From Flavobacteriaceae bacterium (GTDB lineage: Bacteria; Bacteroidota; Bacteroidia; Flavobacteriales; Flavobacteriaceae), in the NCBI GenBank assembly GCA_965224465.1, contig OZ245049.1, forward strand, positions 2,790,001-2,822,000: a stretch of 32,000 nt of DNA. The letters run 5' to 3'. This document shows, in pieces, positions 2,849 through 25,422 of the stretch (positions within the stretch are counted from its first letter, which is position 1; every line of letters begins with the position of its first letter). Below the pieces are notes generated by a model. It saw only the letters and a list, made by a program, of their open reading frames with translations, searched no databases and was not told the DNA's origin. Both the position numbers and the translations under genes were made by a program.

Positions 2849-2870
2849 TCGTAAAAAAACCTATATCACA

Positions 2871-2903: not shown

Positions 2904-2968
2904 GCTTTTTTATCCAAAACAGCCTAGAAAAACCCTACACACTTTTTTAGATACAATATTTAATTTTA

Positions 2969-4369: not shown

Positions 4370-4476
4370 CCTACTATTTTATGTGGGTTCAAATATAGAA
4401 CAGTAAAATTTACTTTTACCCTACCTCCAAACTAAAAATAAATGCCTTACTTTGTATTTCTCTTATAAGCCCCAAT

Positions 4477-4992: not shown

Positions 4993-5053
4993 AATTATCA
5001 CATAAGGTAGGGTAAAAGTACTTACAGATGTTATACGTATACAGCAACACAAA

Positions 5054-5947: not shown

Positions 5948-8499
5948 TGATATTTTTGAACTTTAGAAAACATCTATTTTTTACCTTCTTTTTTACGTTG
6001 TTTTGGATGCAAACCCAAGGACAAATTAATAAAGAAAAACCACTTGTTGCAGTTTTAAATACACTAACCATAAAATTTAATATTAGTTTCACCTATTCCG
6101 ATGCACTGATCCTTCCAATCCAAATACAGATGCCTTCTACAATGCACACCTTGGAACAGTACCTTGTATTCTTACGACAACACACAAGATTGGATTTTAA
6201 AAAAGTATCCAATTCCAATATTGCCATTCTTAAAAAAACAGCTCCTTCCCCACTCTGTGGCTACTTAATTAATGTACAAAATTCCAACGTTGTTACAGGC
6301 GCTCATATTCGCATTTTAAACCACACTATAACGGCAATTTCTGACGAAACTGGCTTTTTCTCCCTGCCTCCTATGCCTCAAAATGAAGTGATAGAAATTA
6401 GTCATATTTCCTATCCTACCATCTATTTGAACGCGACCGATTTTAAAAAAAGTAATTCCTGTTTTAAAATCTACCTCAACACAAAAACAGAAGTCCTCCA
6501 TAAAGTTGTCATCAATGCGATTCTAACCAAGGGAATTGAATGGACAAAGAACAACACTTTAAACATAGTTCCAGAGAAGCTAGGTGTATTACCCGGACTA
6601 ATAGAACCCGACATCTTACACCTAATTCAGCTACTCCCTGGAATACAAAGTGTAAATGAAACCATCAGTAATATAAACATAAGAGGAGGTTCTAATGATC
6701 AAAACTTAATGCTTTGGAACGGAATTAAAATGTATCATACAGGGCACTTTTTTGGGCTTATTTCTGCGTTCAATCCCTATTTAACAAAAAATGTAACTGT
6801 GGTAAAAAACGGAGTCGGTGCTCAATATGGTGATGCCGTTTCTGGACTTGTTGCAATACAAACACAAGACAAAATCAAGAAATCCACCTACGGAGGTCTC
6901 GGCATAAACCTACTCAATGTAGATGCGTATGTACACCTGCCGTTTTCAAACAGATTCGCCTTGCAATTATCAGGAAGAAGATCCATTACAGACATCTTAC
7001 AAACACCCACTTTTGACACGTATTTTAAACGCGCATTTCACGATTCAAAAATTACCAATAACACCGTTTATGCCCACAGTAAATTAAGAACAAATGCAAA
7101 TTTTAGCTTCTATGATTTTAGCGGAAAACTACTCTACGACATCAATAAAACACATCGATTTAGACTGAGTGGATTGCAAGTATCAAATCGACTTAAATAC
7201 CAAGAGACAATTATCAGCGAGCAATACGCAGAGCAAAAAGAAAGCCAATTAAGACAAGAAAACAGGGCGATTGGAGCTGAATTAAAAAGCAATTGGTCCG
7301 AAAAATTCTCCACAAGAATACATGCTTATATAAGTAACTACACCATCAAAGCTTCTAATTACACCCTACTTACAGAACAGCGTTTGCTTCAGGAAAACGA
7401 AGTCTTAGAAACCGTGTTTACCCTACAAGGAAAACTCCATTTAAACAAACACACAACGCTACTCACTGGTTATGATTTCTCAGAAATAGGGATTACAAAT
7501 TATGATGATGTAAACGAGCCTGTATATGTGAGAACTATAAAACATGTGATTAGAAACCATGCTGTTTACTGTCAATTTAAATACGCTTCTAAAGATGATA
7601 AACTCCACGGAAAAGCAGGATTTAGGCTGAATTACATCGAAAAGTTTACAGATTTCAAACTAGAACCTAGACTAAACATTCACTATCAATTAAATCCCCG
7701 CATTACTATCTATAGCGCAGGCGAACTTAGAAGTCAGTTTTCTACACAAACCATAGATTTACAAAAAGACTTCCTAGGGGTAGAAAAACGTCGCTGGGTT
7801 TTAACCGAAGAGCAAGAAGTTCCATTGTTAAAAAGCAGACAAATTTCGACAGGAATTACCTATAAAAAGCAACGTTTTTTAACTTCCATAGAAGGATTCT
7901 ACAAAAAAGTAACAGACATCACGGCGTCTAATCAAGGGTTTCAGAATCAAAATCAATATATAAAAGCCATTGGAAATTATACTGCAAAAGGCTTGGAAGT
8001 ATTTAGTCAGTACACGTTCCCCAGTATAAACACATGGATTAGCTATACGTATCTTAAAAACGATTATACCTTTAAAACATTTTTACCACCAAATTTCCCG
8101 AACAATATAGATGTAAGACATGCCCTGTTTATAGGAAGCACTATAGACATTCAACGGTTTAAAATTGGTATCGGACTGCAATGGAGAACAGGAAAACCGT
8201 ATACAAAACCAACCGAAATCAACCCCGTTTCTACAACTACCTTAGTACCGAGCATCAATTACCAAACCGCAAATAGCGCTAGATTGCCCAATTATATGAG
8301 AACTGACATCTCCTGTATGTACGACTTTAAAATTTCGAAAAGTGTAAACGGCCATATCGCTGTATCCATACTCAATACATTGAATCAACACAACATTCTC
8401 AATCAATATTACCAATTAAATAGCGAGCACACTATTATCACTATAAAAGATCCTGCCATTAAAAGCACTCCAAACATAAGTCTGAGACTCTTATTTTAA
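5947..8499 (+). CDS. TonB-dependent receptor / transducer with an N-terminal signalling extension
   Basis: 850 aa with a signal peptide and an STN-like N-terminal segment. Carboxypeptidase-regulatory-like segment (CGYLINVQNSNVVTGAHIRILNHTITAISDETGFFSLPP). Plug motif (NINIRGGSNDQNLMLWNGIKMY). C-terminal beta-barrel ending in Phe (ISLRLLF). Confidence 0.85.
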   Translation: MIFLNFRKHLFFTFFFTLFWMQTQGQINKEKPLVAVLNTLTIKFNISFTYSDALILPIQIQMPSTMHTLEQYLVFLRQHTRLDFKKVSNSNIAILKKTAPSPLCGYLINVQNSNVVTGAHIRILNHTITAISDETGFFSLPPMPQNEVIEISHISYPTIYLNATDFKKSNSCFKIYLNTKTEVLHKVVINAILTKGIEWTKNNTLNIVPEKLGVLPGLIEPDILHLIQLLPGIQSVNETISNINIRGGSNDQNLMLWNGIKMYHTGHFFGLISAFNPYLTKNVTVVKNGVGAQYGDAVSGLVAIQTQDKIKKSTYGGLGINLLNVDAYVHLPFSNRFALQLSGRRSITDILQTPTFDTYFKRAFHDSKITNNTVYAHSKLRTNANFSFYDFSGKLLYDINKTHRFRLSGLQVSNRLKYQETIISEQYAEQKESQLRQENRAIGAELKSNWSEKFSTRIHAYISNYTIKASNYTLLTEQRLLQENEVLETVFTLQGKLHLNKHTTLLTGYDFSEIGITNYDDVNEPVYVRTIKHVIRNHAVYCQFKYASKDDKLHGKAGFRLNYIEKFTDFKLEPRLNIHYQLNPRITIYSAGELRSQFSTQTIDLQKDFLGVEKRRWVLTEEQEVPLLKSRQISTGITYKKQRFLTSIEGFYKKVTDITASNQGFQNQNQYIKAIGNYTAKGLEVFSQYTFPSINTWISYTYLKNDYTFKTFLPPNFPNNIDVRHALFIGSTIDIQRFKIGIGLQWRTGKPYTKPTEINPVSTTTLVPSINYQTANSARLPNYMRTDISCMYDFKISKSVNGHIAVSILNTLNQHNILNQYYQLNSEHTIITIKDPAIKSTPNISLRLLF

Positions 8500-8683
8500 A
8501 AGGTTTTAATTAATTGTATATATGAACCGAAAACCTCACCCCAATAACAAGGAAATACTTCCGAAAGACTATTTTCTATATCGAGACAGAGCCTAGGGGA
8601 ATTAAACCCTCCATAAGGAATTAAAAAAATCACCCTTACGTTACTTTTTGAATGATAAAAACCACAATTAAGTGTAATTTTAA

Positions 8684-11914
<3,231 letters not shown>

Positions 11915-12000
11915 TTGGTTTTTAAAACTCATTTTAGATTCGTTGTCCTTCGGTTTCTATATATAGGACTTGGGATCTAAACTTTGAAAAGTTAAAATTA

Positions 12001-12040
12001 AAGAAAGCCTGATATTTAATAAATATCAGGCTTTCTTTTT
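12001..12040 (+). terminator. Strong Rho-independent terminator downstream of lacZ
   Basis: Perfect 17-bp stem: AAGAAAGCCTGATATTT (12001-12017) pairs with AAATATCAGGCTTTCTT (12021-12037). 3-nt loop, then a T-run. It marks the core/accessory boundary. Confidence 0.8.
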
Positions 12041-12068: not shown

Positions 12069-12228
12069 ATACCAAACACATTTTTCAAGTGACGGTTTAG
12101 AAATGGAATTGTTTTTTGTTTTAGCTACGCGATAAATGGAAGGATAGCCTTACTATCATTCAGTTTTTTAACAACACTAGAACGAAAAATAAACGATTTA
12201 TATCGGTCATTTTGGATTGTAACTATAC
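12069..12228 (+). mobile_element. MITE-like 160-bp element, copy 1
   Basis: About 85 percent identical by eye to the reverse complement of 18296-18455. It starts ATACCAAACACATTT. It contains the internal inverted repeat GTT(T/C)TAGC...GCTAGAAC. Its right end is degenerate. Confidence 0.5.
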
Positions 12229-12255: not shown

Positions 12256-12365
12256 CGCCTCTCTTAAAACAACAGGAAATCATACTAAAACCATCGAACT
12301 AAATAACAATAAAAATCGATGGACCGCTTGAAAATTTAAAAATTTTGAATACATTTAACAATAAA
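12256..12365 (+). pseudogene. Remnant of a tyrosine recombinase 3' end (degenerate copy)
   Basis: Reads ASLKTTGNHTKTIELNNNKN, then frameshifts. At the nucleotide level it is homologous to 13532-13655 (shared GGACCGCTTGAAAATTTAAAAA(T)TTTGAATACATTTAACAATAAAA). Confidence 0.45.
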
Positions 12366-12476
12366 ACAACACATACCCCGAAACTATTATAGACATAACG
12401 GAAATAACGTCAAGTCTTGGAAGTTTTTTGATGATATGTGGGTGTTAGCAATAAGCAAAGCAACCAAACTAGAATA

Positions 12477-12785
12477 ATGGATACTGGAGATTTATCAGAA
12501 GAGGCATATCGAGCAATATTAATAGAGTCGGAAAGATTTAATCACGATTTGACTTTACAATTTGGACTTCTTTCAGGAGAGTGTAAAAACGAAAAGGAAT
12601 TCATTGAAAAATCAGTCAAGCTTATAAACGAAATGAAAAACTATAATAATATCGACCTTGATGATATGTTTTTTGGAAATCCACCAAAAACAAAAGACTT
12701 TCAAATGACTTTAAAAAAGATACTTGATAATATTGACGATATTGGAGCTATTCCAATTGAAAAAAGGACTTATTTATATGGATAA
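12477..12785 (+). CDS. Hypothetical small protein (102 aa from the first ATG)
   Basis: ORF with an ATG at 12477 (MDTGDLSEEAYRAILIESERF...). Its stop overlaps the next ATG (ATGGATAA at 12778-12785), suggesting translational coupling. No recognisable motif. Confidence 0.45.
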   Translation: MDTGDLSEEAYRAILIESERFNHDLTLQFGLLSGECKNEKEFIEKSVKLINEMKNYNNIDLDDMFFGNPPKTKDFQMTLKKILDNIDDIGAIPIEKRTYLYG

Positions 12786-13281
12786 AACAATTATTAAAGA
12801 ACTAGAAAATAAGTTAGTAGAGATGAATGGAATGTTTTGTTCTCAAAAACTAGATGATGATTATTTTCAATTGCCTGAGAAATTAATAAAAAAAACGGGA
12901 AACAAAAGAGATGTGCCGTCTAAAAGAGGGAAACTTGAAATTTGGGCTGCGGCAATAATATATACAATTGGTTCGATTAATTTTCTTTTTGATGAATCCT
13001 TTGATCCTTATATTACAGCACAAGAGATAAGTGATTATTTTGGAACAAAAAATTCAACAGTATCAAATAAAGCTGGATAAATAAGAAAAATATTTGATTT
13101 GACAATGTTTGATAATGAATTTGCAACTGAACGTATGAATGAAACAAATCCGTTTAATGATTTAGTAATGGTTGACGGACTAATAGTTTCACTGTCTTCA
13201 ATTCCTGAAAATTTACAAGAATTGGTAAAAAAGGAAAGGGAGGAAGGACGAGATATCGAATTTACAACTGAAAGAGAATAA
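12778..13281 (+). pseudogene. Hypothetical protein split by a single in-frame TAA (13078-13080)
   Basis: ORFs 12724-13080 and 13099-13281 are in the same frame. The 18 nt between them contain no stop: ...STVSNKAG*IRKIFDLTMFDNEFATERMNE.... A 167-codon frame is therefore broken by one nonsense codon. Confidence 0.55.
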
Positions 13282-13298
13282 ACCCTATTCCTAATCGA

Positions 13299-13520
13299 GT
13301 AGACGGCTCCAACTAAAATAGTAGGAGTGCGCCTCTCACACCATGTACATACTAGAGCTTCGCTCGGTCATTTCTAATTATAAGTGTAAAAACACTTCTA
13401 ATTCTCATGAAGCTACACCGCGGTTCAAAAAATTGAAGTTTGCGTATTATTAATGGTTTCTATCAACCGTTTGTATCCTTTTCGTACAAGTCTAGATTTG
13501 GGTTTGGTAGTTTTTAAAAT
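13299..13520 (-). mobile_element. Group II intron 3' fragment (C-terminal IEP codons plus domain V/VI region)
   Basis: Homologous to 17741-17967 of the full intron copy. It encodes ...SILKTTKPKSRLVRKGYKRLIETINNTQTSIF* on the minus strand. It ends ...GTCTAC on the minus strand at 13299. Homology stops abruptly at 13520. Confidence 0.7.
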
Positions 13521-13655
13521 TGATTTTTTTCTTATTAAGCCATGCTTCTCCAAAAACCACAGAGATATACACCAAGACCATCGAAATAAACAATAAAAAA
13601 AATGTTGGACCGCTTGAAAATTTAAAAAATTTGAATACATTTAACAATAAAAAAA
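13521..13655 (+). pseudogene. Remnant of a tyrosine recombinase 3' end (better-preserved copy)
   Basis: Reads LLSHASPKTTEIYTKTIEINNKKNVGPLENLKNL. The H-x-S-x-K-T-T-E-I-Y-T pattern is the C-terminal catalytic-Tyr box of tyrosine recombinases. No upstream catalytic region remains; an intron fragment replaces it. Confidence 0.55.
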
Positions 13656-13870
13656 ATAATCACTCATTCTACTCTAGCTATGTTAGAAATAACATCTACT
13701 CTAAGAGTTCTATAGTAGATATACGGGTGTTAGCGTTCATTCAAAAAGACCAAACTAGTAAAGTAAACCGATGAAAAACCAGCGCACAAATAGCACATTT
13801 GCAAGCTCCGACACACATGCTGACACTTCAGCTTTCAAAAGAGCTATTTTTTGCCATCACACATAAGCCG

Positions 13871-16800
13871 ATGATTAAAATTGTTGAAATAGAAAATGCC
13901 TTAGAGCGGATTAATGGAGATATCTTTCAGGAGTTTTGTAATCATTTCTTGTATTTAAAACTTAATCCGAATTCAATAACGCCGATTGGAAGTGTGATTG
14001 GCAAAGAAAAGTCTAGAAAAGGGATTCCAGATTCCTATTTTACTAGTGCAGATAATGAATTGATTTTTGCTGAATATACAACACGAGAGAGACTTAAATC
14101 GGGCGAAAGCTTTTATAATAAGTTAAAATCAGATTTGGAAAATTGCTTTGACACCTCAAAAACTGGTTTGAAAAATGAGGAAATAAATAAGGTAATACTT
14201 TGCTTTACTGAACGTATTAAGCCCGAAGAAAGAAAAAACCTTGAAGAACTGTGCAAGAAGTATAACGCTAATTGCATCCTTGATTTAAAAGGTATTAGAG
14301 ATTTATCATTTGCCGTATTGGATTATCCAATTTTAGGAAGTTTTGTCGGGATTAAAATTGGAACTGGTCAAATTCAAGAACCATCAGAGTTTATTGCAAA
14401 TTATGAAAAGAATAGAATATCTACTCCATTAAGCAATTCTTTCAAGGGACGAGAAACAGAAATTAAAGATGGCTTGAATTATCTGGAAACCAACGATGTT
14501 TTATTAGTTTATGGAGCTGCTGGCACAGGGAAATCTAAATATGCCATTGAGTTAGCAAAACAGTTTTCAGATAAAAACGATTATACTTTTTTGTGCATAG
14601 GAAATAAAGGTATTTCGATATGGGAAGACTTAAAATCATTTATTAATAAGGATAAAAAATATGTACTATTAGTTGATGATGCAAATAGGCTTACTCAGAA
14701 TTTCCAATTGATTTTAAGTTTATTGGGAGAAAGAATATCAAACAGCTTAAAAATAATTGTAACAGTTCGGGATTATGCTTACCCACAAATAAAAACTATT
14801 GCTAATAATTGCGACTATTCATCCATAGAGATTAAAATTTTCTCTAATGATGAAATAAAGAGTATTATTCAATCAGAAGATTTTAAAATAAAAGAACCAT
14901 CCTATGTTGATAGGATTCTAAAGGTAGCACAAGGAAATGCTCGATTAGCAATAATGAGTGCCAAAGTGGCTCTTAAATCCAATAATATTACTCAACTAAA
15001 TGATGCTTCTCAGATATATGATGAGTATTTTGAACCTCTATTTACTGAAGTTCCTTTATTAAAAAAACCTATAACATTAAAAGCTTTAGCATTAATCGCA
15101 TTTTTCTCACGAATTGACAAAAGCAATAGAGAGTTTTGTGATTACATTTTTAGTTCACTAGAAATAGATGAAGAACAATTCTGGGAAATATGTTATTCTC
15201 TTCATGAAAGTGAATTAGTAGATCTTTTTGAACAACAGATTGTTAAAGTTTCAGACCAGATTTTTGCTACATACATTTTTTACAAAGCGGTTATTGAAAA
15301 TGAAACTTTAAGTTTCAATTTCTTTCTTGATAACTATCTAGATTATGAAAATAAGATTCAGGACACCATAGTCCCGATATTAAATACGTTTGATTATAAG
15401 AAAATTGAAGTCAAGTTAAAGCCAATAATTATTAATAAATGGATAGAAATAGAAAAGCAGAATGAATATAAAAATTCATTAATGTTTCTTGATTTATTTT
15501 GGTATTATTTAGGCTCACAAGTCTTTATTTTTCTCAAAAAACAAATTGACATACAAGTAAAAGAAATCACAAAGGAATATAGGTATACTTATGAAATGAA
15601 TGAATTTTCATCTGGCACAGGAAAAGACATTGAATTGCTTTCTAAGTATAGAAATCATAATGATGAATTATTCAAGGATGCATTAGAACTCTTATTTTAT
15701 TATGCTCTTAATGCTCCATCAAAAATGCCTGCCTTAGTATATACTTTAAAAGAAAAATTTAGTTTTTCTAGGTTCGGATATATGTACGGCGACCATGTTC
15801 AGCATTTACTTTTCGAATTCCTTTTTCAGAATGCTAAAGCAGGAGAAAATAAAGAGATTTATCAGAACATTATATGTGAGATTCTACCTCATTATCTAAA
15901 AATAGAATATCGGGAAAATGAAGGTAATGGAAGGTCAATCACATTATATACTTTTCATTTATGGCTTTCGAAATCAATAGAATCATTTAGAGGGAAATGC
16001 TTTGAATATTTATTATCTGTTGCAAATAAAACAGATATATTGGAAATATTATATAGACTCAATTTCTACGAATATAAAGACTCAAATGAGATACTTAATC
16101 ATGATAAAAAATATATTTTCCAAATAATTAATAACCATTTTCATCCTAGTGTATTTGAGGACTGTTTTGTCCTTCAACATATTTTAGAAGGATTCGATTA
16201 CTTAAAAGTAGATTACACAAAAGAGATAAGTGATGTAAGTGAAAGTCAACTATATCGACTTGCCGAAGTACTAAAAAAAGATAAACAAAGAAAAAAGGAA
16301 ATTGGTTGGAAAGAGGAAGAAAAGTTACATGAGAAAGAATTGCTCGAATACTGTTCTGACTTTGATGTTACACAGTATGATGCCCTATTTGAGAATGTTT
16401 CTTCGATATTGGGGAAAATTAAGAATATTAGTCGTGATAATTTAGAATGGCAATATGAAAATTCACTCAATATAATTTTAGGAAATATTGCAAAATCAGA
16501 CCCAAAATTATTTTTAGAGGTTATTACTATAAACTTTGATAAATATCAATTTAACCTTCATTTCGTTTTTATATTTAATCAGTTTTTTCAAAATAACCCG
16601 AAGTATTATTTCGAGTTATTTAAGCTCATCAAAGGGCTAAAAGAAAACATTAAGTTTAGCTTTTATCAAACCTTAAATATTGATTTTGCAAATGACGAAC
16701 ACTTGCCTTTGCTTTATGCAGCTTTACTAGATTCAATAAAATCATTATCCACACAATATGTTTTTTGGGATTTAACATTCGTAAGTAAGTTTGATACATT

Positions 16801-17617
16801 AAAGAGTGAGCAAGATATTTACAGTGAAATATTATTAATAGTATTAGCAAAAGTAAAAACAGAAGAAGCTAAGATTAGTGTTGGGCAACAATTTATTGAA
16901 AAGTGTGCTTCATTTGATAGTCTTCCTTATGAGTTACTAGTTGAAGCATATTTTTACTCCAACAAAATAGAAAATCATTTTGACCATGATAAAAAACTAT
17001 TTAGAATACTACTACAAAGAGACTTCAATTTTATTATTCGATTTTTAAAGTACAATTCTCCAAATCGTATTTCATATCACGACTTAGAGCATGAAAGATT
17101 TGATTTTATTTGGGAATTGGGCAATTCGACTAAAATAATTGACTCTGTATTTGAATTCTTTATTACAAATGAGCCGTTTTACTTTTCAGAAAGAGCAGTA
17201 GCTGCATTTTTTCCTCAAATAAACAGTAAATATGGAAATAAACCAATTGATTATTTAAGAGGTATTCTAGAAGACAAATACTTAAATGATAAATATGTAG
17301 ATGTGGTATTTAGTATAATATGCTATAAATACCCAAGTTTAAAAATGGAAATTTTAGAAATGTTTTTGACTTTAAATAATGATTTTGAGGTTTTTAGAAA
17401 ATTAGAGATTATCCAAAGAAGTAAAAGTTGGTCAGGCAGCTATATTCCAGTAGTTGAAGGAGAAAAAAAGATTTGGGAAAATGTTTTATCAGTTTTAGAA
17501 AGTTTACCAAATAGAATGGATTTCTATGAACACAAGGAATATACCACTAGACAAATTGGTTATTGTGACTTAAGGATTAAAGATGAAATGAAAAGAGAAT
17601 TTCATGAGGACTTTTAG
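13871..17617 (+). CDS. Large three-part protein: nuclease-like N-terminal domain, STAND/ORC-Cdc6-like P-loop NTPase, and ~850-aa all-helical C-terminal region. Candidate NLR-like (Avs-type) defence protein
   Basis: Walker A GAAGTGKS (14513-14536), preceded by GRETEIKDGL. Walker B VLLVDD (14663-14680). Sensor-like IIVTVRD. GNARLA (14933-14950) resembles the ORC/Cdc6 sensor-2 motif GDARxA. The N-terminus has GIPDSYF...LIFAEYTTRE, a possible PD-(D/E)xK-like pattern. The C-terminus is rich in L/F/Y/K/E/I. I prefer the ATG at 13871 (MIKIVEIENAL) to the TTG at 13799. Confidence 0.8.
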   Translation: MIKIVEIENALERINGDIFQEFCNHFLYLKLNPNSITPIGSVIGKEKSRKGIPDSYFTSADNELIFAEYTTRERLKSGESFYNKLKSDLENCFDTSKTGLKNEEINKVILCFTERIKPEERKNLEELCKKYNANCILDLKGIRDLSFAVLDYPILGSFVGIKIGTGQIQEPSEFIANYEKNRISTPLSNSFKGRETEIKDGLNYLETNDVLLVYGAAGTGKSKYAIELAKQFSDKNDYTFLCIGNKGISIWEDLKSFINKDKKYVLLVDDANRLTQNFQLILSLLGERISNSLKIIVTVRDYAYPQIKTIANNCDYSSIEIKIFSNDEIKSIIQSEDFKIKEPSYVDRILKVAQGNARLAIMSAKVALKSNNITQLNDASQIYDEYFEPLFTEVPLLKKPITLKALALIAFFSRIDKSNREFCDYIFSSLEIDEEQFWEICYSLHESELVDLFEQQIVKVSDQIFATYIFYKAVIENETLSFNFFLDNYLDYENKIQDTIVPILNTFDYKKIEVKLKPIIINKWIEIEKQNEYKNSLMFLDLFWYYLGSQVFIFLKKQIDIQVKEITKEYRYTYEMNEFSSGTGKDIELLSKYRNHNDELFKDALELLFYYALNAPSKMPALVYTLKEKFSFSRFGYMYGDHVQHLLFEFLFQNAKAGENKEIYQNIICEILPHYLKIEYRENEGNGRSITLYTFHLWLSKSIESFRGKCFEYLLSVANKTDILEILYRLNFYEYKDSNEILNHDKKYIFQIINNHFHPSVFEDCFVLQHILEGFDYLKVDYTKEISDVSESQLYRLAEVLKKDKQRKKEIGWKEEEKLHEKELLEYCSDFDVTQYDALFENVSSILGKIKNISRDNLEWQYENSLNIILGNIAKSDPKLFLEVITINFDKYQFNLHFVFIFNQFFQNNPKYYFELFKLIKGLKENIKFSFYQTLNIDFANDEHLPLLYAALLDSIKSLSTQYVFWDLTFVSKFDTLKSEQDIYSEILLIVLAKVKTEEAKISVGQQFIEKCASFDSLPYELLVEAYFYSNKIENHFDHDKKLFRILLQRDFNFIIRFLKYNSPNRISYHDLEHERFDFIWELGNSTKIIDSVFEFFITNEPFYFSERAVAAFFPQINSKYGNKPIDYLRGILEDKYLNDKYVDVVFSIICYKYPSLKMEILEMFLTLNNDFEVFRKLEIIQRSKSWSGSYIPVVEGEKKIWENVLSVLESLPNRMDFYEHKEYTTRQIGYCDLRIKDEMKREFHEDF

Positions 17618-17995
17618 ATCCTACCCGCAAAGTCAAGCACATTGTCTGGTCGCACAAGCTAGCACACGACCAAAACCAGTCAAAAAGCTTGCCTTGCCAA
17701 CGCATGAACTGACAGAAATAAAGCACGAAACGCTAATCGAGTAGACGGGTGACAACTGAATAGTTGCCACTGCGCCTCTCACACCACCGTACGTACGAGA
17801 GCTTCGCTCGGTCATTTCTAATTACAAGTGTAAAAACACTTCTAATTCTCATGAACCTATACGGCGGTTCAAAAAATTGAAGTCTGCGTATTATTAATGT
17901 AATCTATCAAAGGTTTATACCCTTTTCGTACAAGTCTAGATTTGGTAATGGTAGTCTTTAAAATTGGACTTTGGGCTACTGCCCATCCTCCCATT

Positions 17996-18293: not shown

Positions 18294-18457
18294 TATACCA
18301 ATTACAATCCAAAATGACCAATATAAATAGTTTATTTTACGTTCTAGCGTTGTTAAAAAACAGAACGATAGCTATGGCTATCCTTAGGTTTTTAGCCTAG
18401 CTAGAACAAAAAATAATTCCATTTCTAATCCGTCACTTGGAAATGTATTTGGTATTA
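18294..18457 (-). mobile_element. MITE-like 160-bp element, copy 2, inserted in the intron IEP gene
   Basis: Removing 18296-18457 (the 160-bp element 18296-18455 plus one copy of the flanking TA) restores the minus-strand reading GAA CGG CTA AAC CAA GTC TGC CGA GGC TGG (ERLNQVCRGW). This is the expected RT-to-X-domain junction. TA dinucleotides flank the element (18294-95 and 18456-57). Terminal inverted repeats are TACCAA(T/A)T. Confidence 0.55.
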
Positions 18458-20160
18458 GCCGTTCTAAACGTTCCGACAATGACATTGGTTTGGTTTTCTT
18501 GGTAATACTCTTTAGGTTACGCTTAAACTTTGCCCAACTTTTCTTTGCTACTACTAGTATATATTGTCCTTTTACTCCCTTTTTGTAGACTGGCACAAAG
18601 CCATGTCCTAGTAACTCAAAGTTTACGGGTCTACGAATGCCACTTTTGGCTTTATTTATAGGTAGTTTTAATTTGTCTTTTAAGAAGACAAACAACGTAT
18701 TCCCTATTTGTTTCGCCTCACGTTTGGTCTTTGCGTAAATGCTAAAATCATCTGCGTAGCGGACGTACCGTAAACCCATTCTTTTCATTTCTTTATCCAA
18801 GACGTCTAACATTATGTTAGATAGTAAGGGACTAATTGGGCTTCCTTGCGGGATTCCTTTTCTACGCTTTTGAAGTTTCCCATTTATTAAAATAGGAACT
18901 CTAAGCCATTTTCGGATTAAACGCATGGTTGTTGGACATTTTACCCTGTGGTAAATAAGTTGTAGTAGGATACAATGGTCCACTTCATCAAAGAACCCTT
19001 TAAGGTCAATATCTACAATATCTTGGTAACCATTATTGATATACTGTTGAGCTTGTAGTACTGCTTTTTGAATGTTCTTTTGTGGTCTAAACCCAAAACT
19101 AAGTGGCTCAAAATCAAATTCGAACTGAACCATTAATTGTTGGCTTACCGCTTGCTGTAGCCATCTATCTACTACTGTTGGGATTCCTAAAAGTCTGGTT
19201 TTACCCTTGCCTTTTGGAATGCTTACTCCTAAGATTGAGTTTGGAACATAGCTATTCTTACGGATCGTTGTTAGTATGTCTGAACGGTTTTCAACTATAT
19301 AAGTTGAAAGTTCCGTTACTTTCATACCATCAACTCCGCTAGCTCCTTTATTTCGCTTCACTTGACGTGCTGCTTTAAAAAGGTTGGTAGCTTCTAGTAC
19401 TTTGTCAATCATAGGTTAAATAATTCGGGTACTCCTGTTGGTTTAAAACTAGGCTAGCTAGGCATCCTAATTGAATTTCAACGTAATTTAATGTTCTGTC
19501 CTTCCCTATTTGTGAGACCATCTGAGGTCTTTCCTCAACTCGTTTCCCATAGGTACTATGACGTCTGCTGACTTCTCCATAGAACCAACTCCTGGCTTTG
19601 GAGACCTCCCCAGGTAATGACATCTTCTTTCACTCAATCACTGCCGTATCTACATAACTACCCTTTTAGTATTCTTTTGGGCGTTGCAATGATGTGTTTA
19701 CTTACCCAAGTAATTATACCTCTGTATACGGTTTCTGTTCGTCAGTACCGAGCTTTGTAGTCTCGCTTCCTTCAGATAAAACCTCACGGTTTTCACCCTT
19801 GCGACTTACTAATGTTTCAGAACGTTACTCCTGCACATAAGGGACTTGCACCCTCTAGATTAATTAACTACCTTTCCGTAGTTAAAAGATGCCCATGCTG
19901 GGCACACACAATAAATATAGGTCATTTGGCGGATAGTGCTAAATTTGAAATGAGTACAATTAATAAAATATATAGCGGATTGATAGGTTGGAGCTTTGAA
20001 ATGCCAAACGCCCCATATTCGAGCCGTTATCTACAATTAGATAAAATAGTACACATGGATTCATCATTTTTCGTGATGTTTTATTAAAAAAGGGGTGTCG
20101 GGAGTCCAAATAAAACAGAGGAAGTTATTTTAAACATCTATGTTATAACGCAAGTTTGTA

Positions 20161-20340
20161 AAAACAGGGAAATACAATTAAAAAACAATTACCGCATATA
20201 ACTATTTTTTGTATATTTGAAGAACACTTATAGATATAGGCACCTAAACACTAATAACACAATGCTACTATGTGGAAACAAATAGAAATACCCATAGTTA
20301 GAGCTATTGTTATAGGTGATGGTGAGAAGATAAAAAGACA
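20161..20340 (+). repeat. Cassette leader repeat, copy A (promoter-proximal 180 bp only)
   Basis: Near-identical to 27590-27769, 24049-24228 and the matching part of 29990-30089. Homology continues about 60 nt into the CDS. Confidence 0.85.
20212..20219 (+). promoter_or_regulatory. Bacteroidota -7 promoter box TATATTTG (TAnnTTTG) of cassette A
   Basis: Exact match to the TAnnTTTG consensus inside an A/T-rich conserved block, about 120 nt upstream of the start codon. The same box occurs in all five cassettes. Confidence 0.55.
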
Positions 20341-21405
20341 ATGGAAACAAGAAAATTAAAAAAAACAGGTTTTAGAATAACATTTGAAGACGGAGAAACA
20401 ATGACAAAATATTTACAAGCAATTAGCCCTTGTTTTTGCAACAGAGACATTAAAGAGGATGAGCTTGAAGAAATAATCATTGAACTACGAAAAAAAAGCG
20501 GAAGATACGAAGTGTCAAACTTTCTAAATAAAATAAGAAAAACCGGTTTAATTGAAATTAACAAAAAGTACAAACCTAGCGATGACAAAAAGACAAGATT
20601 ATACATTAAAGAGAATGTCTACTATGCTAAATGGGGCAGTGAATTTTACCCAATAGTTGGTGATTTTAAAAAATACACTGGAAGTGAATCTCCTAAAAAA
20701 TATATTAGCAAAATAGATGGTGTTTTTAAAAAATCTATTCTTAAAGAAAAAATAAAAGAATCTGATTGCAACTACAAAACATTTGCAGATCATCTTAATT
20801 GCACATTCACTACAAATAGCATTAATACATGTATCCGTAAAATACATTTTATCGCTCAAACATTTCACGAAACAAATGGTTTTATAGATTCAAGTGAAAA
20901 AGGACAAGGAAAAAAATCATACGGAGGAGGTACGTGTTTTAAAGGCAGAGGCTTAATTCATATAACTCATGATTACAATTACCTTCCTTATTATGATGAA
21001 GCACTGAATACAGGAACCTATAAAGACTCGTCTACAGAGACAAATAAAAAATACCTTGATCTGTATGACGGAAAAAATAAAATTGGAGAAGATGTAACAG
21101 AATTTATTGAAAGAAAAGAAAAAGAAAAAAAAGCACATGGCTTCCCTGATGGTTTTATAAAAGATCACTTAAAGCCATTTGCAAAAGTATTAGCTTCTGA
21201 TTTACAACACGCCTGTTATAGTGCTGGATTCTTTTGGTACTTGAACGATATAAATGATGAAGCTGATTCAGACAATAGTGATGGAGTTTCTAATATAATA
21301 AATGCTGGTGACCAATTGTCCAAAAGAAAACAATACGTAAAATACTTAAAAGAAATTTTTGATTATGAAACTTGTAAGAAAAATCCAAAGAAAAACAAAA
21401 AGTAA
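20341..21405 (+). CDS. Toxin A: shared N-terminal tag plus a C-terminal GH19-like (chitinase/lysozyme-fold) peptidoglycan hydrolase domain
   Basis: The N-terminus METRKLKKTGFRITFEDGETMTKYLQ is shared with 27770. FIAQTFHETNGF (HET at 20866-20874) and FKGRGLIHITHDYNY (20944-20982) match the GH19 signatures (AQxxHET; GRGxxQ[IL][ST]xx[FY]NY). No signal peptide. Confidence 0.75.
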   Translation: METRKLKKTGFRITFEDGETMTKYLQAISPCFCNRDIKEDELEEIIIELRKKSGRYEVSNFLNKIRKTGLIEINKKYKPSDDKKTRLYIKENVYYAKWGSEFYPIVGDFKKYTGSESPKKYISKIDGVFKKSILKEKIKESDCNYKTFADHLNCTFTTNSINTCIRKIHFIAQTFHETNGFIDSSEKGQGKKSYGGGTCFKGRGLIHITHDYNYLPYYDEALNTGTYKDSSTETNKKYLDLYDGKNKIGEDVTEFIERKEKEKKAHGFPDGFIKDHLKPFAKVLASDLQHACYSAGFFWYLNDINDEADSDNSDGVSNIINAGDQLSKRKQYVKYLKEIFDYETCKKNPKKNKK

Positions 21406-22066
21406 TCTTTTATGTATAATTGCGATTACTTTATGCTCTTGTATATCTAGCAATAATGGCAAAAACATTACTAAAAAAAATAATTATGAAAATGTTGAAA
21501 CCAATAGCCTGTCTAATAACTTTTTAAAAAAGCTAATAGACACCCTCTCTGTTAAAGAAAGCGATACGTTATTATTCAGGAAATGGCGAGGATCAAGTAA
21601 TGATTCTGTATTCTTTAACATAAAAACATCAAAATTCATACTACTAAGAAAACCTTATTCGAAGTATTACAAAACAGGAACAAACAAATTTAGCACTTGT
21701 GAATTAACATTCAAAAACACAAAAACTAAAGAAATATTTAATTTTAAGACCTATTCTAATTTAGGCAAAGGTAATAATCCTTACAGTCAAAACAAACTAA
21801 GCAGCTATGTAGACATTGAAATTATATCTAAAAACAAAGGGAAGTTTTTGATTTCAGATCGTAACACAATAGAATATAGCTTGTTATTCGAATTAAAAGA
21901 AAATCAAATAGAAATTAACAAAATAAAAAGAATACCCCTAAGAACAAAATCTATTAAATATTGGTACGAATTAGACACATTAATTACAATTGATAAAAAT
22001 AAGAACCTCATAAACCTAACAGAAATTCAAAAATTTCTTTTTAATGAAAAAAATTTAATGAAATAA
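21365..22066 (+). CDS. Putative immunity lipoprotein for toxin A
   Basis: MKLVRKIQRKTKSNLLCIIAITLCSCISS is a signal peptide with a lipobox-like Cys. Its start overlaps the toxin 3' end by 41 nt. Its position directly downstream of the toxin fits an immunity role. Confidence 0.6.
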   Translation: MKLVRKIQRKTKSNLLCIIAITLCSCISSNNGKNITKKNNYENVETNSLSNNFLKKLIDTLSVKESDTLLFRKWRGSSNDSVFFNIKTSKFILLRKPYSKYYKTGTNKFSTCELTFKNTKTKEIFNFKTYSNLGKGNNPYSQNKLSSYVDIEIISKNKGKFLISDRNTIEYSLLFELKENQIEINKIKRIPLRTKSIKYWYELDTLITIDKNKNLINLTEIQKFLFNEKNLMK

Positions 22067-22155
22067 GCACTATTTATAACAGCTAAGATTAGTGCAATGC
22101 ATAATGCCCCTCCCAACACCTTGGTATCCATAGAAGATCACAACAGGAAACTATA

Positions 22156-22475
22156 GGATTGCGTACAATTAATTAAGAGGCTAGCGACAGCACTTGTTTT
22201 AGATCATTTACTTCTTCACTCTTTTGTGGGGACATGCCAATACAAGTTATTTCCTTCCTATTCAACAATAGATGCAGATAGCTCAACGTTATGACTAAGC
22301 GAATTGTAGTTTTAACCAGTAAAAACAGCTAAAAACAAGTATCTAGTTCTGAATTTTATGTTGTCGAAGCATTGTATGAACTGAGGTAACGGTTTTTAAG
22401 CATCAAAAAAAACAGGGGAATACAATTAAAAAACAATTATCGCATATAACTATTTTTTGTATATTTGAAGAACAC
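22156..22475 (+). repeat. Cassette leader repeat, copy B (upstream part plus promoter; diverges just after the -7 box)
   Basis: Homologous to 27339-27656, including the core AATTAAGAGGCTAGCGACA at 22171-22189. Homology ends at GAAGAACAC (22475). Confidence 0.85.
22460..22467 (+). promoter_or_regulatory. -7 promoter box TATATTTG of cassette B
   Basis: Same conserved TAnnTTTG box, about 115 nt upstream of the ATG at 22582. Confidence 0.5.
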
Positions 22476-22581
22476 ACAATGCCATATATAGAGAATTGAA
22501 AATTAAACAGAAAAACACACCGCTTTATGATTGCCATAACGGATATAGAAGTTTTACCAATAATAAAAGAACCAAGGAATA

Positions 22582-23199
22582 ATGGCATATTACAGCAAGA
22601 CAACAGACCGAATGGATATACATATCGAAGAATATAGAGGGACGGTTTTAATCAAGCAAAAATGGAAATATAATTGGCTAAATGCGATAGGAACTTCTTC
22701 TTGGACACATTCTGAAAAACAAAATTTTCATAACAAAGTAGATCGTTTAATTTGGAATAGTTGGGGGAATCATTTTTTTCTAAAAGTTAAAGGAACTTCG
22801 GACTTTGCTATAAAACACAAAACACTTAGATGGGATAATAATTTTGATATCGAATGGACGCTACACCAAGAACATTGGAAAGTTAATGTGACTAAATATC
22901 CTAATAATTACATTGGTAATCCAACAAGTTCTGTTAGCTGGAATGCAAAAGAGATAAAATTAGACACTAAAGACACCGCTCCACGTAAGAGACCAAGCAA
23001 CGGCGTAAATTACTTTCAATACCCTGTATTACAAGAGTTTGGGCATTCTGTTGGGAATTCAATATTTGCAAATTTAGGAATGCATGGAGATGAATATAAA
23101 ACTTCTAGCAGCCACTATGCGGATAGAAATAGACATTTAGATTTCCTATTGAAAGAATTAAACACAATGATTCCAAACACTCAATTTAGTAAATACTAA
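22582..23199 (+). CDS. Toxin B candidate: zincin-like metallopeptidase fold with a degenerate active site (QEFGH...GDEY)
   Basis: 205 aa with no signal peptide and no METRKL tag. QEFGHSVGN (23032-23046) followed by GMHGDEY resembles the HEFGHxxG...DEY metallopeptidase-effector motif, but Gln (CAA) replaces the first zinc-binding His. It is driven by the shared promoter and followed by a lipoprotein gene. Confidence 0.5.
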   Translation: MAYYSKTTDRMDIHIEEYRGTVLIKQKWKYNWLNAIGTSSWTHSEKQNFHNKVDRLIWNSWGNHFFLKVKGTSDFAIKHKTLRWDNNFDIEWTLHQEHWKVNVTKYPNNYIGNPTSSVSWNAKEIKLDTKDTAPRKRPSNGVNYFQYPVLQEFGHSVGNSIFANLGMHGDEYKTSSSHYADRNRHLDFLLKELNTMIPNTQFSKY

Positions 23200-23205
23200 A
23201 AAATT

Positions 23206-23607
23206 ATGAAAACATACACGATAATCCTTTGTTTATTATTACTTAATTGTACTCATACAATTTCAAAAAAAGAAAAAAACAATATAATGGATGCACCAAA
23301 GAAAACAATAATTATGAACAATCGTGATTTCAATGATATCATGAAATTAGAAAAATTAAAGGCCGTTAAAAAATATGGAAAACCACTTAAAGAAGAATCA
23401 CTCAGACTAGAGGATATGCAAGGAGAATTTTGGAATGGAATTCAAGATGTATACATTAGGAAAGATAAATTAAAGAAACCAGTTTTTATTGAAGAATTAA
23501 CTTGGGAAAAAGATTCTGTAAATTACATAACTGTTTGGTATCAAAACGAACAAAAAAAATCCTTACCAAAACACTTCCTAATATGGGATAAAGGAGCTGA
23601 GTTTTAA
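23206..23607 (+). CDS. Putative immunity lipoprotein for toxin B
   Basis: MKTYTIILCLLLLNCTHT is a signal peptide with Cys. 133 aa. It starts 6 nt after the toxin B stop. Confidence 0.55.
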   Translation: MKTYTIILCLLLLNCTHTISKKEKNNIMDAPKKTIIMNNRDFNDIMKLEKLKAVKKYGKPLKEESLRLEDMQGEFWNGIQDVYIRKDKLKKPVFIEELTWEKDSVNYITVWYQNEQKKSLPKHFLIWDKGAEF

Positions 23608-23624
23608 ATACTCTTTGTACTCGA

Positions 23625-23860
23625 GTAGACGGCTCCAACTAATTCAGGTGGTAGAAACCTCTCACACTAGCGTACCTACGAGAGCTCCGTTCGGTCATTT
23701 CTAACTATAACACCAATTAAAATCCAAAATGAGCGATATAAATAGTGTATATCCATTTCGTGCAAGTCTAGATTTGGGCTTGGCTACCACGGTTCTATTT
23801 GTGCCACCGATTATGGTCAACTTGTGCCACTCTAAAAAATCAAATTCAACTATATTGTTG
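23625..23860 (-). mobile_element. Group II intron 3' fragment (divergent subfamily)
   Basis: Shares CGAGTAGACGGCTCCAACTAA...CCTCTCACAC...GAGAGCT(T/C)CG(C/T)TCGGTCATTTCTAA with the other two copies. The minus strand encodes ...FLEWHKLTIIGGTNRTVVAKPKSRLARNGY, an IEP C-terminal-like sequence. The right boundary is approximate. Confidence 0.6.
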
Positions 23861-23877
23861 TCCAAAAAGCAATAGTT

Positions 23878-24228
23878 GCCAACACAAGTTATTTCCTTCC
23901 TTTTCAATAATAGATGCAGATAGCTCAACGTTATGCATAAGCGAATTGTAGTTTTAATCAGTAAAAACAGCTAAAAACAAGTATCTAGTTCTGAATTTTA
24001 TTTTCGAGAAGCATTGTAGGCATAGGTAACGGTTTTTAAGTACCCAAAAAAACAGGGAAATACAATTAAAAAACAATTATCACATATAACTGTTTTTTAT
24101 ATATTTGAAGAACACTTATAGATATAGGCACCTAAACACTAATAACACAATGCTACTACGTGGAAACAAATAGACATGCCCATAGTTAGAGCTATTGTTA
24201 TAGGTGATGGTGAGAAGATAAAAAGACA
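23878..24228 (+). repeat. Cassette leader repeat, copy C (left part replaced by the intron fragment)
   Basis: Near-identical to 27419-27769. Confidence 0.85.
24100..24107 (+). promoter_or_regulatory. -7 promoter box TATATTTG of cassette C
   Basis: Conserved TAnnTTTG box. Confidence 0.5.
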
Positions 24229-24297
24229 ATGGAAACAAGAAAATTAAAAAAAACAGGTTTTAGAATAACATTTGAAGACGGAGAAACGTTAACTAGG

Positions 24298-25422
24298 CTT
24301 AAATTCAACTAATAAACGCAACTTTTCGATTTGATTCTATGATGGTTATATTTTCAAAACAGAAAAGTAGGAAAACCTACCTTTCTTGTCTTGATGGATA
24401 TGTATCTTACGGTCTCAAATCTCGAAAAAAGAAGTTGTATGAAACACATCACCCAAGCGCAAAGATACACAATTTGTTGCATGTTAAAACAAGGTTATAA
24501 ACAGGTTGAGATAGCAGCTGCTATAGGAAAAGACAAGTCTGTTATTAGCAAAGAGATTAAGCGTAATTCAGACAAAAGAAATGGAGTTTACAAGCATGAA
24601 TTAGCCCAAAAAAAGTATGCTAAACGTCATAAAGAAAAGCCTAAAAGAAAACGCTTTACAGAAGATATTCAACAAGCAATAGAGTTGTTATTGCGAGACG
24701 ATTATAGTCCTGAGCAAGTAGTTGGTGTCCTAAAAAAACAAGGTAAAGAAACGGTGTCTATTGAGCGTATATATCAGCATATTAGGGAAGACAAGAGGAA
24801 TGATGGTGATTTACATACACACCTTCGCAGACAGGGAAGGAGATATAGAAAACGTGGCTCATCAAAGGATTCTAGAGGGGTTATAAAGAATCGTATTAGT
24901 ATAGAACAACGCCCTGAAGTTGTTGAACAAAGAAATCGATTTGGAGATTTAGAGGTCGATTTAATCATAGGTAAAAACCATAATCAAGCCATACTTACCG
25001 TAAATGATAGAGCTTCTGGAATGCTTAAAATGAAAAAAGTAAGCTCTAAAGAAGCAGTTGTTGTCACTAAAGCTATCAATGAAATATTAGAAGACTGGAA
25101 GCCTTATCTACATACTATAACAGCTGATAATGGAAAAGAATTTGCAGGCCATGAGCAGGTTGCAGAAAATTTATGTATTGATTACTTTTTTGCGCATCCA
25201 TATCACTCTTGGGAAAGAGGATCTAACGAAAATTTAAATGGTTTGATTAGACAATATTTTGCCAAAGGAAGTGACTTTACAAACCTAACAGATCAAAGAA
25301 TCAAAGAGGTAGAAACAAAATTAAATAACAGACCTAGGAAGAGACATAAATATCAAAACCCTATATTTGTAATGGAACAATTATTATTTAACTAAAAGTT
25401 GCGTTTGTGACTTGAATTCAGC
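24298..25422 (+). mobile_element. IS30-family insertion sequence (1125 bp)
   Basis: Imperfect ~29-bp terminal inverted repeats: CTTAAATTCAACTAATAAACGCAACTTTT at the left, and the reverse complement of AAAAGTTGCGTTTGTGACTTGAATTCAGC at the right. 3-bp direct duplication AGG (24295-97 and 25423-25). Single transposase ORF. The empty site can be reconstructed from the paralogue at 27830-27845. Confidence 0.85.
24439..25395 (+). CDS. IS30-family DDE transposase
   Basis: N-terminal HTH (MKHITQAQRYTICCMLKQGYKQVEIAAAIGKDKSVISKEIKRN). DDE region motifs DLEVDLIIGK, ITADNGKEF and HSWERGSNENLNGLIRQYF are typical of IS30. Confidence 0.85.
   Translation: MKHITQAQRYTICCMLKQGYKQVEIAAAIGKDKSVISKEIKRNSDKRNGVYKHELAQKKYAKRHKEKPKRKRFTEDIQQAIELLLRDDYSPEQVVGVLKKQGKETVSIERIYQHIREDKRNDGDLHTHLRRQGRRYRKRGSSKDSRGVIKNRISIEQRPEVVEQRNRFGDLEVDLIIGKNHNQAILTVNDRASGMLKMKKVSSKEAVVVTKAINEILEDWKPYLHTITADNGKEFAGHEQVAENLCIDYFFAHPYHSWERGSNENLNGLIRQYFAKGSDFTNLTDQRIKEVETKLNNRPRKRHKYQNPIFVMEQLLFN

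Follow-up and report, generated by a model that had tools for sequence, protein, structure and literature searches.

The gene at 13871-17617 (+ strand) of the Flavobacteriaceae stretch analysed here (contig OZ245049.1; "the window" denotes all of its 32,000 nucleotides (nt), and all coordinates are in window numbering) encodes a large protein that is probably a stand-alone antiviral STAND (Avs-like, prokaryotic NLR-like), which by analogy would act through ligand-triggered oligomerisation and nuclease-mediated abortive infection. Most likely the gene itself serves in defence against phages and is borne on mobile DNA. The three-part layout proposed for the protein in the first-pass annotation was borne out by AlphaFold2 (AF2), Foldseek and Pfam, which gave a restriction-endonuclease (REase) fold at the N-terminus, an nSTAND3 NTPase and a helical solenoid. 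As far as sequence comparison goes, the pattern of conservation along effector, switch and sensor, together with the invariant catalytic-type and NTPase residues, fits this reading.

The region held a single long open reading frame (ORF) in the ORF listing of the window, opening with a TTG at 13799 and running to 17617 on the + strand (1272 codons in DNA of 28% GC). The true start was the ATG at 13871, since M1 was aligned in 46 of 46 diverse relatives; the gene thus comprised 1248 codons plus the stop, giving a product of 1248 amino acids (aa), and the stop codon had been counted in the earlier length of 1249 aa. A chance ORF was dismissed because of the length of the frame in such AT-rich DNA, because more than 120 database clusters matched the protein full-length, and because relatives were encoded at 453 loci in a scan of GTDB species representatives. 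All of the motifs quoted earlier were found in the translation: GIPDSYF (aa 51-57), ELIFAEYTTRE (63-73), KGRETE (192-197), GAAGTGKS (215-222), VLLVDD (265-270) and GNARLA (355-360).

The N-terminal domain (aa 1-185; 13871-14425, + strand) had a PD-(D/E)xK restriction-endonuclease fold and is the putative nuclease effector. The AF2 model, made on aa 1-195 (predicted local distance difference test score, pLDDT, 86.6), had the topology a-a-b-b-b-a-b-a-b, with helix H16-31, strands E35-38, E55-58 and E64-70, helix H81-92 and strand E107-112 as core elements, and AF2 and Foldseek agreed on the alpha-beta-beta-beta-alpha-beta core that defines the PD-(D/E)xK fold. Foldseek searches of the PDB retrieved EcoT38I (E 1.8e-4) and Avs4 (8dgf_B; E 3.2e-3, TMq 0.49), with Can2, Card1, LmuA, MunI, McrC, VRR-NUC, Mus81 and Shedu as further structural matches; phage restriction endonucleases and RPB5 were returned from BFVD, and in both databases nucleases with the REase fold made up the bulk of the matches. 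The fold and these nuclease matches upheld the suggestion that the N-terminus was compatible with a PD-(D/E)xK core. Among the 46 family N domains searched with Pfam, 13 weakly matched L_protein_N (the N-terminus of the bunyavirus L protein, best E 2.9e-5), which we take to be the bunyaviral cap-snatching endonuclease, and one matched VRR_NUC.

The candidate active site was delineated by conservation and consisted of D54 (14030-14032), E68 (14072-14074) and K84 (14120-14122), plus Q20, T70 and D88, all on the + strand. In an alignment of 46 diverse relatives from more than 10 phyla, G40, G51, P53, D54, E68, K84, D88 and C92 were invariant, and Q20, K47, T70, T71, K97 and T98 were conserved in at least 90%; in the larger set of 105 full-length relatives, D54 was kept in all and K84 in 104. 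D54 opens core strand 2, E68-x-T70 lies on strand 3 and K84 starts the next core helix. The canonical lysine of (D/E)-x-K had been reported as missing; a threonine (T70) indeed occupies that position in the 46-sequence alignment, but the invariant K84 on the following helix probably substitutes for it. A variant of this kind has been described, PD-EXX-K (Pa4535), whose lysine has moved onto the second core helix (PMC3424549), and in the model the lysine function has probably been relocated to K84 in the same manner, as in a PD-ExX...K site. The N domain is therefore probably catalytic, a predicted nuclease, because D54 and E68 are invariant and are joined by an invariant lysine on the next helix, for which PD-EXX-K provides the precedent. 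Three to four cysteines of this domain were also well conserved (C92 99%, C111 93%, C23 87% and C128 74%), and could form a metal site or be structural.

The P-loop NTPase core (aa 186-325; 14426-14845, + strand) was delimited by Pfam, conservation and AF2. The profile search called for by the first-pass annotation matched Pfam nSTAND3 (PF20720) above threshold (37.4 bits vs. a cut-off of 27.2, aa 198-328), which places the protein in that family; a precomputed PF20720 annotation was present on nearly all relatives, and sub-threshold Pfam echoes were seen for nSTAND5/6, ATPase_2, AAA_16, NACHT and NB-ARC. The invariant motif residues lay in Walker A (G215-S222; 14513-14536), Walker B (V265-D270; 14663-14680) and a sensor-1-like T298-V-R-D-Y-A303 (14762-14779), ahead of which the lead-in residues R194 and E197 precede Walker A. 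A helical lid and winged-helix module followed (aa 326-470; 14846-15280, from AF2, the profile alignment and conservation), containing G355-N-A-R-L-A360 (14933-14950; N356 and R358 invariant) and a conserved ISDQ motif (aa 460-463), all on the + strand. Over 90 full-length relatives, the set in which both NTPase and C-terminal invariance were scored, R194, G215, G218, G220, K221, D269, D270, V299, R300, Y302, N356 and R358 did not vary. In the AF2 model the centre of the protein was a five-stranded P-loop core, succeeded by the helical lid and then by a winged-helix-like helix/beta-hairpin unit at aa 414-460, so that the elements of a STAND core (Walker A GxxxxGK[ST], Walker B hhhhDD, sensor-1 arginine, lid and winged helix) were all present.

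We take VLLVDD to be the kinase-2 motif (hhhhDD) and K-I-I-V-T-V-R-D to be the RNBS-B motif (TTRD, sensor 1) of NB-ARC proteins; GNARLA occupies the GxP position of STANDs and the position of the sensor-2 arginine of AAA+ proteins. The family profile aligned aa 206-365 to a small subunit of RFC, including its GDMRRA sensor-2 (E 1e-3 against PDB sequences). The NCBIfam model of the RFC small subunit scored 32.9 bits, far from its cut-off of 303, and the protein was not placed among the ORC/Cdc6-RFC proteins. The P-loop, both Walker motifs and GNARLA were thus where the earlier reading had put them, but as STAND equivalents (nSTAND3) rather than as specifically ORC/Cdc6 features.

The remainder of the protein (aa 471-1248 and the stop; 15281-17617, + strand) formed an alpha-solenoid by AF2 and Foldseek and is the putative ligand sensor. 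The AF2 model of aa 191-1248, built with a 90-sequence alignment, was confident (pLDDT 89.4; predicted template modelling score, pTM, 0.76), and its C-terminal part of about 780 aa was all-helical save for one beta-hairpin insert at aa 679-696. Pfam repeat families gave no match in the C-terminal region, in agreement with its earlier description as helix-rich and devoid of recognised motifs. The structure prediction and Foldseek search that had been proposed as a check led from the N domain to the REase fold and from aa 191-1248 to Avs4 as the first PDB match: the Avs4-portal structure was retrieved through 8dgf_B (E 1.3e-9) and 8dgf_A (E 6.5e-9), EfAvs5 (9jap) was the third-best structural match (E 2.6e-5), and karyopherin/CAND1 solenoids and the AAA+ modules of ORC, RFC and RuvB ranked lower. 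The C-terminus was the most variable part of the protein, with 19-24% identity in distant relatives vs. 32-43% for the N domain, and whatever the divergence bin, identity to the window protein fell between the N domain and the C-terminus (from 0.84 to 0.60 and from 0.32 to 0.19, for instance). Such a gradient fits what would be expected, judged from the alignments, of a conserved effector and switch attached to a fast-evolving sensor. R707, Y1027 and D1038 were the C-terminal invariants.

The family was large and uniform. A phmmer search with the N domain against 1.84 billion 50%-identity representatives returned 903 proteins at E<=1e-3, the best 150 of which were almost all 1240-1290 aa long or obvious fragments; coverage of the query in members ran from about 1 to 1247, with the length fixed near 1250 aa. 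Bacterial hosts belonged to the Bacteroidota, Cyanobacteria, Acidobacteriota, several proteobacterial classes, Chloroflexota, Deinococcota, Planctomycetota, Spirochaetota and Bacillota, archaeal members came from Methanosaeta-type methanogens, and plasmid-borne members were found on 13 Leptospira plasmids and a B. cereus megaplasmid. The distribution across phyla is sporadic. Databases named the relatives "hypothetical", "ATP-binding protein" or "nSTAND3 domain-containing NTPase", and a literature search for six family accessions found them cited in no paper of the library searched.

The only architectural variation seen involved Fic. One member (P0064) carried a Fic domain ahead of the intact protein, and a Fic gene lay immediately upstream on the same strand in two relatives and nearby in one more. 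The Fic genes near distant relatives (Fic AMPylase, SoFic-like in PADLOC) were located at 8822-9988 of locus L022, 7033-8097 of L032 and 13871-14920 of L070. Fusion and adjacency together constitute a link of the Rosetta-stone type between this STAND family and Fic toxins. On the Leptospira interrogans plasmid pLiSL2 (L087, 8001-15675), the gene next downstream of a 1242-aa member, in the same orientation, encoded a hypothetical protein of 1264 aa with no detectable relation to that member at E 1e-5. Leptospira plasmids may thus carry two large genes of sensor type in tandem.

The system consisted of a single gene, since when the 698 ORFs flanking 80 loci were compared all against all by BLAST, no neighbour family was common to more than 4 of the 80, and those were close relatives; the earlier remark that the gene stands alone was therefore extended to its family. 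The neighbourhoods themselves changed. A protein 70% identical to that of the window (P0006) was encoded, in identical form, in at least 3 different neighbourhoods; other relatives were carried as cargo in small int/AlpA integrative elements, one followed directly after the relaxase of a CTnDOT-like integrative and conjugative element (ICE), and some resided on Leptospira and B. cereus plasmids. The gene moves between contexts, on mobile DNA.

Some of these contexts also contained genes of defence type, and an association of the family with defence is likely. Of the 11 contexts annotated, 9 had defence or mobile genetic element (MGE) genes no further than 8 kb away. P0006 was accompanied by a dGTPase (PADLOC E 1.9e-56) and a SIR2 gene, another relative by SIR2_2 and a Gabija-like OLD-TOPRIM/UvrD pair within 8 kb, a third by Multi_ubiq/ThiF, TIR-Mrr_cat and HNH genes within 8 kb, and a further one by a Schlafen AlbA_2 gene within 8 kb. 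The CTnDOT-like ICE locus also contained patatin, gasdermin and metallo-beta-lactamase (Lactamase_B) genes, and a relative at the end of a prophage had a restriction endonuclease and AAA ATPases nearby; one relative lay in a purely metabolic context. The 140 nearest neighbours yielded PADLOC matches to SoFic (3), Avs4-like (2), mads (2), Mokosh, AbiEi and several PADLOC candidates.

Put together by analogy, a mechanism may be proposed in which the protein would remain a nucleotide-bound, autoinhibited monomer in the uninfected cell, as in Avs3, Avs4 and Avs5. The variable C-terminal solenoid would bind a conserved protein of the phage or of another invader, and binding would license NTP-dependent oligomerisation via the NTPase/winged-helix module. 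The oligomer would juxtapose the N-terminal nuclease domains and thereby lead to indiscriminate DNA degradation, which would kill or arrest the cell ahead of phage release, that is, cause abortive infection. The models for this scheme are the mechanism of Avs3/4 (structure 8dgf), as reportedly worked out by Gao et al. in 2022, that of Avs5 (PMC11897194) and the 2026 survey of STANDs (PMC13581612).

Several observations weigh against an antiviral STAND of this kind. The family members are known from sequence and predicted structures alone. PADLOC v2 had no defence model for the protein, its only match being the P-loop of mad8 (E 3.8e-4), and the PADLOC, NCBIfam and PDB sequence/profile searches as a whole gave P-loop-level or sub-threshold matches only (mad8, RFC); the family profile retrieved no Avs3, Avs4 or Avs5 from the PDB sequences. 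Global TM-scores to Avs4 were low (0.24-0.27); low values are expected for flexible multidomain proteins, and the likeness to Avs4 is therefore one of architecture and fold and not of a shared sensor. The lysine of (D/E)xK is replaced by threonine, and the catalytic role of K84 follows from its secondary-structure position only. Effectors are swapped in many Avs families, yet the N domain was never swapped in the 105 full-length relatives and the same architecture was kept in the best 150 of about 900 clusters. Many of the nearest neighbours of relatives were housekeeping genes, PADLOC hits did not differ between the vicinity of the gene and more distant DNA (209 for 140 proximal ORFs vs. 150 for 100 ORFs at least 6.5 kb away, as crude family tallies), and the 10 neighbouring ORFs in the window matched no PADLOC or Pfam defence family. 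Finally, relatives were absent from the 50,697 phage records searched.

Some of these features would be shared by a non-defence accessory of MGEs (a regulator, or a maintenance or exclusion function), with the REase fold catalytically dead and used for DNA binding or oligomerisation, and with an MGE function under the control of the STAND switch. The absent canonical lysine (E-x-T) speaks for it, as do the location of the gene right behind an integrase or relaxase gene in several elements, the loci (several) flanked by housekeeping genes only, the PADLOC hits per ORF of about 1.5 both proximal and distal (the same crude tallies), and the RPB5-like, non-catalytic REase folds among the structural neighbours. 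We nevertheless regard this explanation as unlikely: the invariance or near-invariance of D54, E68, K84, D88, Q20, K47 and T70/T71 across phyla is atypical of a degenerate fold, and the repeated co-localisation with bona fide defence genes argues in the same direction. Moreover, the gene occurs outside recognisable MGEs and on very different elements, so that no single MGE function fits, and Pfam matched no helix-turn-helix or other regulator output domain.

An alternative is an NTP-dependent, restriction-like enzyme with direct sensing of nucleic acid, as in systems of the McrBC, Lamassu or OLD type. Its REase-fold domain and AAA+-like motor would together recognise and cut foreign DNA, and its helical C-terminus would be a scaffold or DNA clamp instead of a sensor of protein patterns. 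This alternative was judged improbable. Both the overall structure, closest to Avs4 and then to Avs5, two protein-sensing STANDs, and the placement of the NTPase in the STAND clade above the Pfam threshold, with a winged-helix module after the lid as in STANDs, oppose it. On its side are the true restriction enzymes and McrC/LmuA among the structural neighbours of the N domain, the obligatory coupling of that domain to the NTPase, the clamp-loader subunit as best PDB sequence match of the profile (with the sensor-2-like GNxR), the ORC, RFC and RuvB structures also returned by Foldseek, and the resemblance of the C-terminus to generic HEAT/ARM solenoids (karyopherins, CAND1). The C-terminus, however, evolves fastest, as a sensor engaged in an arms race would be expected to, and no methyltransferase or other self-protection partner was conserved over the 80 loci.

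The least probable explanation is a guard-type defence STAND monitoring a host factor or a general infection cue (host-protein modification, a nucleotide signal) instead of itself binding a conserved structural or replicative protein of the phage. A fixed C-terminal length and R707, Y1027 and D1038 invariant from Bacteroidota to archaea would be easier to understand if the ligand were a conserved one, either cellular or a small molecule, than if it came from widely differing viruses, and SeAvs7 incorporates host EF-Tu (PMC13581612). Avs families are, however, reported to recognise folds that unrelated phages have in common, and conserved sensors are compatible with that too (PMC13581612); Pfam matched no ligand-binding domain of known type.

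The Avs-like gene was part of a self-contained unit at 13771-17704, in which homology to relatives extended 100 nt 5' of the ATG and 87 nt 3' of the stop. The conserved 5' leader/promoter region (13771-13870, + strand) began where nucleotide homology to the relatives of about 72% identity begins (13771). It contained a 25-nt element, GCGCACAAATAGCACATTTGCAAGC (13782-13806, + strand; consensus form (A/G)CGCACAAATAGCACATTTGCAAGC), and a small palindrome (13819-13834, + strand). Every relative of at least 67% identity carried the 25-nt element at position -90 relative to the ATG, with no more than 1 mismatch; the element was found nowhere else in 96 loci, and was virtually invariant where the coding DNA was only about 72% identical. 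It includes cAcaTTTG, a near match to TAnnTTTG, which we take to be the -7 promoter motif of Bacteroidota, and could be a promoter or an operator. A scan for sigma-70 promoters and terminators, a method ill-suited to Bacteroidota, gave nothing above the shuffled expectation. A 31-codon upstream ORF in the leader was also considered and was rejected, as substitutions between relatives were mostly non-synonymous.

The conserved 3' non-coding element (17618-17704, + strand) extended to the point at which homology to relatives stops (17704). RNAalifold folded 17634-17691 into an imperfect hairpin of 13 pairs, 5 of them doubly compensated, in a comparison of two sequence lineages only; in a single-sequence thermodynamic test its stability was unexceptional (z -0.29). 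The loop motif GCACACGACCAAAAC was essentially restricted, at 0-2 mismatches, to the site after the gene (the exception was locus L009, with 2 mismatches), and matches were scattered at 3 mismatches. The conserved flanks look like the promoter/leader and the 3' structure of the gene itself, and not like generic recombination sites. An integron cassette, an idea prompted by the unidirectional arrays, the recombinase tails and the 3' hairpin, was rejected, as RYYYAAC...GTTRRRY attC cores were absent; it was further disfavoured by the occurrence of the 25-mer only, and of the loop motif essentially only, at relatives of the gene. No IntI gene was found in the window, which contained recombinase tail remnants only.

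The unit was bordered by repeats and recombinase debris. Repeat "Y" was present upstream (13266-13522, + strand) and downstream (17707-17966, + strand, starting 3 nt past the end of the conserved unit), the upstream copy being 86% identical to 17707-17966 over 262 nt, and nucleotide comparison revealed a partial third copy at 23605-23783. Directly 5' of the unit lay a decayed tyrosine-recombinase tail (about 13523-13758), with the C-terminal coding remnant LLSHASPKTTEIYTKT at about 13523-13570; its 3' part, repeat "R" (13544-13758, + strand), was 74% identical to 12257-12472, where a second decayed tail (about 12257-12472) preceded a DUF6398 cassette (12477-13281). The recombinase debris noted earlier upstream of the gene was thus found in two copies. 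We take these to be recombinase tails from the Box II signature H-x-x-x-x-T-T-x-x-Y. The DUF6398 cassette and the STAND unit, on the same strand, each follow a decayed recombinase tail and each precede a 260-nt repeat "Y". This arrangement suggests that site-specific insertion or accretion took place repeatedly at a single locus, from which the actual recombinase has since disappeared. The 260-nt flanking repeat was also considered as the 3' end of a group II intron, for which there was no support, as the Rfam models of domains V and VI (DV/DVI) were unmatched.

The unit belongs to an AT-rich island that starts immediately past the hairpin (12000-12038) forming the terminator of the GH2 gene. 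The difference in composition noted in the first-pass annotation was real, with a GC content of 0.27-0.31 over the gene vs. 0.34-0.38 in the core block (1-12000), which encodes an ABC-F protein, FecR, a TonB-dependent receptor and a GH2 beta-galactosidase. Downstream of the unit, and not part of the system, a group II intron remnant occupied 18384-19793 on the opposite (-) strand, which accounts for the intron debris reported before: Rfam identified the group II domains D1-D4 at 19527-19793 (-) (RF02001, 126 bits; RF01998, 36 bits), and an RVT_1 ORF at 18384-19412 (-) encoded 342 aa vs. 420 aa for the intact reverse transcriptase (RT) in L003. Domains DV/DVI had no Rfam match in the remnant even at E<=1. 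An inverted copy of a 154-nt piece of the 3' region of the intron RT stood at 12069-12222 (+), just where the island opens.

From 20160 to 32000 the window contained ORFs lined up in one direction, for which Pfam, NCBIfam and PADLOC gave no matches; the arrangement resembles a cassette array. Between the ORFs lay repeats of about 480 nt, at 22059-22535, 27242-27718 and 29648-30124, plus partial copies, together with segmental duplications spaced 2413 and 1413 nt (beginning at 25423, 27836 and 30088). An IS30-like element at 24302-25418 contained a transposase ORF (24391-25395; HTH_38, weak rve) and 25-nt inverted repeats (24302-24326 and 25394-25418). In the genome of the closest relative (L001, GCA_040772825.1), a highly structured repeat of 250 nt, located at 1955-2232, 5177-5426 and 9576-9853, preceded three unrelated genes on the same strand, the STAND gene among them, and carried the 12-bp perfect inverted repeats GTTGATGCGCAA/TTGCGCATCAAC and GGCTCGGGTGTA/TACACCCGAGCC. 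This repeat had no attC cores and was longer than a typical attC; integron attC sites typically measure 57-141 nt.

Avs proteins are pattern-recognition receptors, and from every family characterised so far, one conserved component of phages that cells are able to sense has come to light. Abundance (about 900 clusters at 50% identity), a fixed architecture and a confident model make the present proteins a good candidate family, common in Bacteroidota, in Cyanobacteria and on Leptospira plasmids, where tested defence systems are few. Work on it might yield a new trigger-sensor pair and an active PD-(D/E)xK variant with a relocated lysine, though this kind of system is well established and the gain would be incremental rather than conceptual. 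We suggest, tentatively, that these proteins may form a phylum-spanning Avs-type family outside the experimentally assigned Avs1-24/bNACHTs, with its own trigger, an unusual PD...ExT...K site and a nuclease tied obligatorily to the NTPase, never swapped and only supplemented by a Fic domain in a few lineages. In Bacteroidota the gene would spread as a compact, self-contained unit recognisable by the nearly invariant 25-nt leader element and the structured 3' element. The family may already be within the STAND census of Lee et al. 2026 (PMC13581612), which reports 589 STAND clades and 684 sensor clusters, about 30 of them tested, mostly from Enterobacteriaceae.

Among the known systems to which the protein can be compared, Pfam nSTAND3 describes the NTPase of about 140 aa only; the N domain and the 780-aa C-terminus of the window protein carry no annotation, and the family attaches no function to its architecture. 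With ORC/Cdc6 and RFC the protein shares a GRExE-type lead-in, Walker A and B, and G-N-x-R at the sensor-2 position, but it falls far below the cut-offs for these families, and its architecture of effector plus solenoid is that of a STAND. The N domain resembles Pa4535 (PDB 1y0k) in having D at the start of strand 2, E on strand 3 and K on the following helix, a likeness of secondary-structure position, with no sequence similarity shown.

The comparison with Avs5 (EfAvs5, 9jap; PaAvs5) is closer in the NTPase, as nSTAND3 is also the NTPase of Avs5 (bioRxiv 10.1101/2025.07.08.663546) and both are single-gene, tripartite STANDs. The effector of Avs5, however, is SIR2 (an NADase), in contrast to the REase-fold N domain of the window protein, in which neither Pfam nor structural searches gave a SIR2 signal, and the C-terminal region of the window protein is longer and unrelated in sequence; it was accordingly not counted as an Avs5.

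Avs4 (EcAvs4, 8dgf), which senses the portal, offers the closest overall parallel: it is encoded by a single gene, has the same order of nuclease, NTPase and helical sensor, with an Mrr-like PD-(D/E)xK nuclease, and ranked first among the PDB matches to aa 191-1248 and within the top five for the N domain. The two nevertheless have no detectable sequence relation (PADLOC Avs4 was unmatched at E<=1 and 8dgf was not retrieved at E<=10), and the window protein is about 290 aa shorter, with an nSTAND3 NTPase and with PD...ExT...K rather than the canonical nuclease motif. What the window protein has in common with the Avs class is its architecture: a single polypeptide with an N-terminal effector, a STAND NTPase and a solenoid sensor of at least 400 aa.

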